Source of the DNA: a virus
IMG/VR virus record: IMGVR_UViG_3300012642_000011
Coordinates: 64,001 to 128,000 of that record
Direction: 5' to 3' (one strand)
DNA: 64,000 bases
Each line of letters begins with the position of its first letter. Within the stretch, counting starts at the first letter, position 1. Made by a program: the position numbers and the translations under genes. This document shows, in pieces, positions 60,717 through 61,891 of this stretch. The notes under the pieces were generated by a model. That model saw nothing but the letters and a program-made list of their open reading frames with translations, was not told the origin of the DNA and did no database searches.

Positions 60717-60948
60717 TGCAAAAAGTCAAGCATCAGCACACTGTAACGCTAAACACATCATGTTAAGTTTTCGCATGATTGCCGGGATAATCATTCGTCG
60801 GCAACATGATTTCAAAACTTCTCTACTATCGAGTTGACAAAGCGATCAACGCTATGGTAGGATGATGACATCATCAACATCACAAGTTAATACGAAGTTA
60901 TTCGGTTCAGGGCGAAAATCGATCTGAAAGATGAATTTCAACAAGGAC

Positions 60949-60977
60949 TTGACAACCGAGAGACACTATGGTATGAT
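60949..60977 (+). promoter_or_regulatory. sigma70-consensus promoter (TTGACA-17-TATGAT), repeat copy 2
   Basis: TTGACA 60949-60954, TATGAT 60972-60977. Confidence 0.55.
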
Positions 60978-61062
60978 GATAACATCATCAACATCACAAG
61001 TGAATACGAAGTTATCTGGTCCAAGTTGAAAAGCGATCTGAAAGATGAATTTCATCAAGGAC

Positions 61063-61091
61063 TTGACAACCGAGAAACAGTGTGTTATGAT
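61063..61091 (+). promoter_or_regulatory. sigma70-consensus promoter (TTGACA-17-TATGAT), repeat copy 3
   Basis: TTGACA 61063-61068, TATGAT 61086-61091; further TTGACA promoters at 61365 (weak -10) and 61484 (TAGAGT -10). Confidence 0.55.
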
Positions 61092-61171
61092 AGAGACATC
61101 AACAACGCAAACGCGAAGTTGAAACAACCAAAAACATTCAGGCAAAAGATCACAGGAAAAGGAGGCACAGA

Positions 61172-61276
61172 ATGTTTAAGAAGCATGAGAACAAGTTTAA
61201 GAATATTCTGCTTGACCTTCGGGATCTTGATTATCTCGATTTTAAGCGAGATATCCTGAATAACCTTCATCACTGA
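61172..61276 (+). CDS. small ORF (34 aa) with strong RBS downstream of the promoter array
   Basis: AAAGGAGG, 7 nt, ATG; MFKKHENKFKNILLDLRDLDYLDFKRDILNNLHH; too short for the ORF track. Confidence 0.35.
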   Translation: MFKKHENKFKNILLDLRDLDYLDFKRDILNNLHH

Positions 61277-61891
61277 TTAGGTGAACTTCCGCCAAATCAT
61301 TGCGAAGGGCGAGATAAGAATAGAAGCAAAAGAATCCAAACACATACACAAATGAATACTTGTCTTGACAGATGCAGACTGGACGTGATAACGTTGATAA
61401 CAGTCACAGCAACATATGTCTTATTGAGGACTTGCCAGAGTAGCAACGAGATGAGATCCAACATATGAAGCACATCATGGACTTGACAAACAAAAATTCA
61501 TGGTGTAGAGTGGTTGGTAACAATTTAAAAATGAGGACGGGGCTAGGCAATCCCGAGGAAGAACGACCCTGAGCAGATCTGGGCTTACCGTAGATAGGGA
61601 AACCAGTGATTGTCATCAGATTATTCACTTCAGAATAATTCTGGACAATAAGAAATAATTATGTTTCAAAGCATGGTGATTTCTTTGAATCATGTAGGCA
61701 TACATGATTTCCATCATCAGATGGTTGTCATAAGCACGTGTACAAGGTGCGAGATGAGGATCGCCGTTGAAACGGAATATAAGAATTACAATGTTGAATC
61801 CTCTCATCACGCATGCAATTGGTGGCAATGAGAACAAGGGTTCTGCATTTCCTTCTCAAGAGTCACCATTTCAGCATACTCTTGAGAATAT

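Follow-up and report, generated by a model that had tools for sequence, protein, structure and literature searches.

The left end of coliphage T7 carries three strong early promoters, A1, A2 and A3, which use the host RNA polymerase, are co-oriented and lie about 120–130 bp apart; they follow a Gram-negative consensus without a TRTG extension and, with no terminator between them, give one common early transcript of protein-coding genes. Bacterial rRNA and tRNA operons begin with tandem P1–P2 promoters about 100–120 bp apart; after these come a structured leader that is not translated and then the stable-RNA genes. GOLLD and ROOL are large phage-associated structured non-coding RNAs that are located beside tRNA genes. 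Transcription units of Kayvirus (Herelleviridae) have multiple promoters each, and a non-coding region of about 525 nucleotides (nt) precedes the tRNA gene cluster; the early promoters of a Staphylococcus Kayvirus-type myovirus, mapped by RNA-seq, have the form TTGACW-17-TRTGN-TATANT (PMC7698491). Huge phages carry up to 67 tRNAs (PMC7162821). The locus described here lies near the right end of a 64,000-nt stretch of viral DNA (positions 64,001 to 128,000 of IMG/VR record IMGVR_UViG_3300012642_000011; hereafter the window), where five co-oriented promoter sites (P1–P5), the first three embedded in direct repeats, are found with a 34-codon open reading frame (ORF) ahead of a tRNA gene array. 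It is probably the control region of a megaphage tRNA operon, in which tandem promoters for the host RNA polymerase have been amplified by unequal recombination and drive the 34-codon ORF and the tRNAs.

In a promoter scan, all five sites have a complete −35 hexamer (TTGACA, 6/6). P1, P2, P3 and P5 combine it with a 17 ± 1 bp spacer and with A2 and T6 in the −10, and the −10 of P4 matches at only 3/6 positions (TAACGT). The TG extension directly 5' of the −10 takes the form TRTGn in P1–P3 and TGa in P4, and is absent from P5. P1–P3 are spaced by 115 and 114 bp and are co-oriented with each other, with the ORF and with the tRNAs. The initial annotation had placed three promoters here, and the scan recovers them at the same positions, with an N18 spacer in P1 and N17 spacers in P2 and P3; it had also listed two further TTGACA promoters, both of which exist, although the second begins at 61483 rather than 61484 and the first has a poor −10. 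When plus-strand sites scoring at least 10/12 are counted over the 64 kb and compared with shuffled sequence, there are 12, five of them within 60834–61640; shuffled sequence gives 8.5 such sites per strand per window, or about 0.1 expected per 800 bp. As three of the five clustered sites are copies of one repeat, the five are not independent events. No terminator-like site was found between 60834 and the first tRNA gene, tRNA-Lys (61892), so that all transcripts would read through the 34-codon ORF and a structured leader into the tRNA genes.

Like T7 A1–A3, P1–P3 are three strong co-oriented promoters predicted to feed one transcript, but they are recent duplicates, are TRTG-extended and stand on a tRNA operon; A1–A3 are not known to be copies made by tandem duplication or to be polymorphic in copy number. 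The rrn P1–P2 arrangement has the same order as this locus, with the differences that up to five sites are present here, three of them recent duplicates, and that a small ORF is placed between the promoters and the stable RNAs; the leader of this locus has a pseudoknot and no recognisable boxA. P1–P3 have all the elements of strong Gram-positive sigma-A promoters with a TRTGn extension, and the early promoters of Kayvirus have the same set of elements without any sequence relationship to this phage. Promoters within tandem direct repeats are not described in the Kayvirus study (PMC7698491), whereas here they are embedded in such repeats.

The direct repeats of about 115 bp reported in the initial annotation are upheld, with a period of 114 bp in Tandem Repeats Finder (85% matches, score 383) and 86% identity in a self-comparison of 60840–60953 with 60954–61067; this is the sole long-period tandem repeat in the 64 kb. 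The layout is A-B1-B2-C, with A standing for the −35 of P1, B1 and B2 for the repeat units, and C for the −10 of P3 together with the leader of the 34-codon ORF. The duplicated 114-bp segment begins in the −16/−10 region of a promoter and ends within the following one, after its −35 and first spacer bases, and B1 and B2, aligned in register, differ at 13 of 114 positions.

The number of units varies among relatives of this phage. Two JGI samples and one ENA sample each have a contig with the three-unit form, and these three contigs match the window at 100% identity over 3,701 nt; the triple is therefore not an assembly artefact. Contig L139, 99% identical to the window, has two units, and its unit is an exact hybrid that matches B1 before and B2 after a shared 20-mer, ACATCATCAACATCACAAGT; an exact hybrid with the crossover inside this 20-mer is a signature of unequal crossing-over. 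L001, about 96% identical and on a 19-kb contig, also has two units, independently of L139, and its B combines, as a mosaic, bases specific to B1 with bases specific to B2, such that it may resemble the state before duplication. In L003–L007, which come from five sequencing runs and encode an upstream vWA protein 80% identical to that of the window (hereafter the 80% relative), there is a single promoter, TTGACA-N17-(TGg)TAATGT, whose spacer resembles A and whose transcribed part resembles C; the repeat-specific sequence is missing. The initial annotation had taken absence of the repeats from close relatives, as a recent duplication artefact, to count against its reading, and this is partly the case, as the 80% relative has one copy and two relatives at 96–99% have two. 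With one, two or three copies among relatives, the triple stack represents a recent strain-level amplification and not a conserved design, and we infer that the stack has grown from one to two to three copies, recently, and is still unstable. Homologues of the vWA protein below about 70% identity no longer adjoin the tRNA array and are useless as anchors for more distant comparisons.

The two downstream promoters and the overall layout are shared more widely. In the 80% relative, P4 is TTGACA-N17-TAGCAT with a TG (TGaTAGCAT) and P5 is TTGACA-N17-TATAGT, both scoring better than their counterparts in the window; both have kept their −35 hexamer there while the flanks diverge, and the P5 −10 region is likewise fixed. 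In an alignment of five sequences (window, L001, L007, L140 and L002), the P5 −35 is invariant amid diverging surroundings. The SNF2 helicase gene just upstream of the locus (57787–59559) has homologues on metagenomic contigs of 437–828 kb in JGI, ENA and Logan assemblies, with relatives on contigs of 670–830 kb, and when the locus and 24 kb of the window were compared with GenBank phages by BLAST, tRNA genes alone gave matches; together these place the window in an uncultured megaphage clade. Two members, L002 and L140 (the latter a 727-kb contig), have SNF2 proteins 52–54% identical to that of the window and the same order of elements, namely a first promoter, a small ORF with a strong Shine-Dalgarno site, P4, a conserved block, P5, the leader RNA and a tRNA array, with 15 tRNAs in L002 and at least 26 in L140. 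TG-extended TTGACA promoters precede both arrays (at 13864, 13909 and 14393 in L002, and at 12680, 13115 and 13170 in L140), and more are present inside the arrays, but neither has a tandem repeat at this locus. As distant relatives stack such promoters on their tRNA arrays, stacking is a property of the clade; on this comparison, the embedding of promoters in direct repeats is specific to the lineage of this strain. The features of the locus are listed in Table 1.

Table 1. Features of the promoter, leader and first tRNA region; positions are those of the window.
Feature	Position	Strand	Description
Terminator-like hairpin 3' of the vWA gene	60309..60352	+	16-bp perfect inverted repeat, 8-nt loop, then a T run
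Small predicted membrane-protein ORF	60339..60716	+	125 amino acids as listed; true start uncertain
Promoter P1	60834..60863	+	TTGACA-N18-(TATGg)TAGGAT
Tandem direct repeat	60848..61106	+	2.3 copies with a 114-bp period; each full unit begins at a promoter −10 and ends at the −35 of the following promoter
Promoter P2	60949..60977	+	TTGACA-N17-(TATGg)TATGAT; extra copy missing from two-unit relatives
Promoter P3	61063..61091	+	TTGACA-N17-(TGTGt)TATGAT; its transcribed leader is common to the single-copy relative
Shine-Dalgarno site	61158..61165	+	AAAGGAGG; ATG six nt further on
34-codon ORF	61172..61276	+	No known family
Promoter P4	61365..61394	+	Perfect −35, 18-nt spacer, decayed −10 (TGaTAACGT)
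Conserved block	61424..61456	+	TTGAGGACTTGCCAGAGTAGCAACGAGATGAGA; overlaps a perfect consensus promoter in L140
Promoter P5	61483..61511	+	TTGACA-N17-TAGAGT, without TG
Leader hairpin 1	61538..61562	+	CGGGG-CUAGGCAA-UCCCG, then conserved GGAAGA
H-type pseudoknot	61570..61606	+	S1 61570-61574/61583-61587; S2 61579-61582/61603-61606; loop 3 of 15 nt
Small conserved hairpin	61765..61776	+	CCGU-UGAA-ACGG, then AAUAUAA; CCGC/GCGG in L140, L002 and L142
9-bp hairpin five nt 5' of tRNA-Lys	61855..61886	+	Two pairs compensated in L007
tRNA-Lys(CTT), first gene of the array	61892..61966	+	At least nine tRNA genes within the window

The proposed mechanism is that five co-oriented sites, following the terminator of the upstream operon, would be recognised by the host primary-sigma (sigma-A type) RNA polymerase and would each initiate independently. 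The three strong TG-extended promoters 114–115 bp apart would have arisen by tandem duplication of a 114-bp segment, with unequal homologous recombination continuing to add and remove copies, and extra copies would act mainly by loading more polymerase, so that more small protein and tRNA would be made early. The suggestion in the initial annotation that stacked promoters feed the ORF and tRNAs is favored by the sigma-A anatomy, the shared orientation, the lack of a terminator between them, the conservation of P4 and P5 and the stacking in distant relatives; the part of it that invoked small RNAs is not supported. From the DNA sequence we infer that the sites fire, that the host enzyme is used and that extra copies raise output. 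Several points weigh against this interpretation. The −10 of P4 is poor in this strain and P5 is without a TG extension. The two-unit form of L139 comes from a 615-nt contig, where misassembly is possible. The only pointers to a Firmicute host are the style of the promoters and Shine-Dalgarno sites and the PASTA and G5 domains encoded elsewhere in the window, and a phage-encoded sigma factor of similar specificity could be responsible for recognition. Tandem promoters can occlude one another, such that three copies need not triple the output, and the extra copies could be selectively neutral.

This last possibility is the most serious competitor, although we think it the less likely one: the promoters would be real and the triplication a neutral, recent product of slippage or recombination, with the first promoter, P4 and P5 sufficing for expression. 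Copy number does vary among strains that are 96–99% identical, the 80% relative manages on one unit, and the distant relatives are without a tandem repeat at this locus. Nor does the divergence between units indicate selection on the promoters, as the 14 core promoter positions contain one of the 13 differences between B1 and B2 (G vs T at position 3 of the −10), compared with an expectation of about 1.6, and the core is not significantly better conserved than the rest of the unit. Against neutrality, all three copies retain the −35, the spacer length, the TG and a usable −10 despite 11–14% divergence between units; the P4 −10 has decayed in the same lineage that gained extra copies of the upstream promoter, which could be compensation; and the three-unit form is found in the three 100%-identical contigs from separate samples, with the exact 34-codon ORF present on 19 contigs in a look-up.

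It is improbable that the repeats are primarily protein-binding arrays, such as origin iterons, a packaging site or operators for a regulator of the GGACTTG box, and not promoters. The box GGACTTGACAA occurs exactly three times in the window, all at this locus (60945, 61059 and 61479), and a related block, GAGGACTTG(C/T)C, is kept even in the 52% relatives, which speaks for this reading; however, the homologous promoters of relatives do not have the GGAC prefix while TTGACA is kept. The repeats do not have the form of an iteron-type origin, since a 114-bp period in two to three copies is unlike iterons of about 20 bp (about 17–22 bp), the cumulative GC skew rises steadily through the locus with no turning point, and no replication-initiator gene, nor a terminase gene, was identified among the flanking genes examined. 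Least probable of all, and very unlikely, is the small-RNA reading raised in the initial annotation, in which every repeat would give a discrete transcript of about 90 nt that works as a regulator, sponge or promoter decoy: every unit does carry a strong promoter, and the shared 5' sequence ACATCATCAACATCACAAGT occurs twice in the window and nowhere else in it, but there is no terminator or other 3' end signal within or between units, the unit transcripts fold differently and with unexceptional energies (z = −2.0, +0.77 and −1.56), no complementary target for the shared 5' sequence is present elsewhere in the window, and the units are missing from the 80% relative and have no Rfam match.

On the upstream side, the terminator-like hairpin that follows the vWA gene is kept in L001, and L007 has a different strong hairpin and T run at the same place. 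For the 125-amino-acid ORF beyond it, Pfam gave no match and PHROG none of significance, and both this ORF and the 34-codon ORF are missing from the 80% relatives (L003–L007). The 34-codon ORF and its ribosome-binding site are located exactly where the initial annotation had put them. Its product belongs to no Pfam or PHROG family; in L001 the ORF has two synonymous and two non-synonymous changes, and no similarity was found to the ORFs of 49–50 amino acids at the same position in L140 and L002, such that larger, unrelated small ORFs take its place in distant relatives. Short ORFs within the repeat units (60931–61029 and 61045–61122) were rejected as they are without a ribosome-binding site. 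Between P4 and P5, the block TTGAGGACTTG(C/T)C.AGAGT.GCAACGAGA is near-invariant even where SNF2 is only 52% identical (window 61424–61456, L007 ~995–1027, L140 13098–13130, L002 14323–14352). In L140 it overlaps TTGACA-N17-TATAAT; in the window the promoter hexamers at this place have decayed and the block is still kept.

The region from 61277 to 61890 was regarded as non-coding in the initial annotation, and this is supported by a 4-nt indel in L001 that breaks the listed 56-amino-acid ORF at 61661–61831. A 13-codon micro-ORF, MRTGLGNPEEERP, was rejected because its ATG is lost in L001 and the conservation runs past its stop codon, as was a minus-strand ORF at 61404–61628, where substitutions relative to L007 have no codon periodicity and the G-U pairs can form on the plus strand only. 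The segment 61530–61620, which had been described as GC-rich and highly paired, is the best conserved part of the non-coding region and has a GC content of 52.7% compared with 38–39% in its flanks. Its minimum free energy is not unusual relative to shuffled sequence (z = −0.55), so that the description as highly paired is not supported thermodynamically; it does contain a specific structure backed by covariation.

This structure was compared in five distinct sequences, those of window/L001 (counted as one), L007, L140, L002 and L142 (a GC-rich 727-kb relative). It consists of a hairpin, a conserved GGAAG box and an H-type pseudoknot, and spans 61538–61606 in the window, ~1106–1175 in L007, ~1322x–13293 in L140, ~1444x–14518 in L002 and ~1210x–12169 in L142. 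The hairpin has a stem of 5–6 bp whose sequence differs in each (CGGGG/UCCCG, UCGGGU/ACCCGA, CCGGG/CCCGG, ACCAG/CUGGU and ACCGG/CCGGU). The geometry of the pseudoknot is fixed, with 5 bp in S1, a 4-nt loop, 4 bp in S2, which directly adjoins the 3' strand of S1, and a loop of 15 nt; all 45 of 45 pair cells are standard pairs, and five of the nine pairs are changed on both sides. In a control in which the partners were slid by 1–3 columns, only 24–44% paired. The structure is plus-strand specific on account of its G-U pairs. A simple motif descriptor has one match in the window and one at the homologous place in every relative, and in all five distinct sequences the motif lies just 3' of the last promoter of the tRNA operon. 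A hairpin GUGGCC-UUCG-GGCCAC is present in L142 at the position of the 9-bp hairpin that precedes tRNA-Lys in the window.

No match to the leader was found in Rfam 15 at the gathering score for the window, or at E ≤ 10 for the window, L007 and L140. The leader is like GOLLD and ROOL in being a structured RNA beside phage tRNA genes, but its conserved core is only about 70 nt, with one hairpin and one H-type pseudoknot. A scan of GTDB genomes with the pseudoknot pattern gave no matches, and in a single JGI metagenome scan, made with another pattern that was too loose, BLAST showed that the matches were due to chance. Other candidates for the region were considered and rejected: an RNase P RNA fragment (GAGGAA..., GGCUUAC), for which the P4 pairing of that RNA fails, and a hammerhead core (CUGANGA...GAAA), whose core positions are violated, neither with an Rfam match; a PreQ1-like or other pseudoknot riboswitch, for which there is likewise no Rfam match; and a terminator-type riboswitch, as the pseudoknot is followed neither by a terminator-like site nor by an ORF. 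A boxA antiterminator-like string, UAACAAUUUA, overlaps the −10 and start site of P5 and would thus be missing from P5 transcripts.

The fixed place of the pseudoknot after the last promoter of a long untranslated operon suggests that a cis-acting role is plausible. We propose tentatively that the hairpin, GGAAGA box and pseudoknot could represent a class of cis-acting leader RNA that is new and confined to the tRNA operons of megaphages, though we hold this with considerable doubt. Speculatively, such a leader might serve in processive antitermination across kilobases of untranslated, structured tRNA sequence, in processing or stability, or in ligand sensing.

The tRNA array has at least nine genes before the window ends; from 61892 to that end ARAGORN predicts nine, of which 6/9 are confirmed by Rfam. 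Two further tRNA-like sequences, both in array gaps, were missed by ARAGORN, one at 62296–62363 that scores 26.7 bits with the Rfam tRNA model (cut-off 29 bits), and one at 62626–62703 with a good acceptor stem and T arm and an aberrant D and anticodon region; these may be degenerate or non-canonical tRNAs. At 62860–63064 and 63100–63309 are two paralogous modules 245 bp apart, each with a long imperfect hairpin and a shared UGUAAC bulge. These hairpins end 3–4 nt before a predicted tRNA-Leu of 73–74 nt (anticodons CAG and AAG), and both tRNAs are without the long variable arm that tRNA-Leu should have in bacteria. Inside the array is a gene for a small membrane protein, at 63381–63563 in the window and at 1676–1882 in L007; the L007 protein is a clear TatA/E homologue (Pfam PF02416, E = 3e-14), and the window version keeps the N-terminal GWQL motif and has lost the match to this family. 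The first predicted tRNA-Asn of the L140 (13482–13564) and L002 (14705–14791) arrays is 83–87 nt in length, and even at E ≤ 10 that of L140 is not matched by the tRNA model of Rfam; it may hold an insertion or be a tRNA-like element.

The window has a GC content of 42% and nearly all of its genes are on the plus strand. They are of the kind usual in very large phages, coding for RecG- and ClpB-like ATPases, a UvsX-like recombinase, a DnaB helicase, a T4-type RNA ligase, a Dda-like helicase, HNH endonucleases and a class I ribonucleotide reductase. The gene for the large subunit of this reductase (38718–43298; 1,526 amino acids) has intein and LAGLIDADG interruptions, with Hint and Intein_splicing matches at two places. 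A bifunctional penicillin-binding protein with transglycosylase, transpeptidase and PASTA domains is encoded at 20156–22645 and a G5-domain protein at 55821–57134; these cell-wall proteins are unusual phage cargo and point to a Gram-positive host. The sole other intergenic TG-extended consensus promoter in the window, TTGACA-N17-TACAAT at 34432–34460, adjoins the sole sizeable minus-strand gene (33339–34361) and may mark another early transcription unit. Scans of IMG/VR with the vWA protein, the promoter-box patterns and the leader patterns gave no matches, and no relatives of this phage were among the matches in the IMG/VR and GenBank phage scans made here; the clade appears to be poorly catalogued.

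The promoter stack itself belongs to a familiar type, strong tandem promoters at the head of a stable-RNA operon; new here are the documented recent amplification with its copy-number polymorphism, and an unclassified pseudoknotted leader RNA that is found across a megaphage clade. The natural series of one, two and three copies illustrates how unequal recombination can allow a phage to adjust promoter dosage, and the promoters suggest that the tRNA arrays of a poorly known clade of 0.7-Mb phages are transcribed by the host polymerase. The leader RNA is a testable candidate for how megaphages control or protect very long untranslated transcripts and, if it does represent a new class, the polymorphic promoter amplification upstream of it would be a fast-evolving dosage control of the phage tRNA supply.

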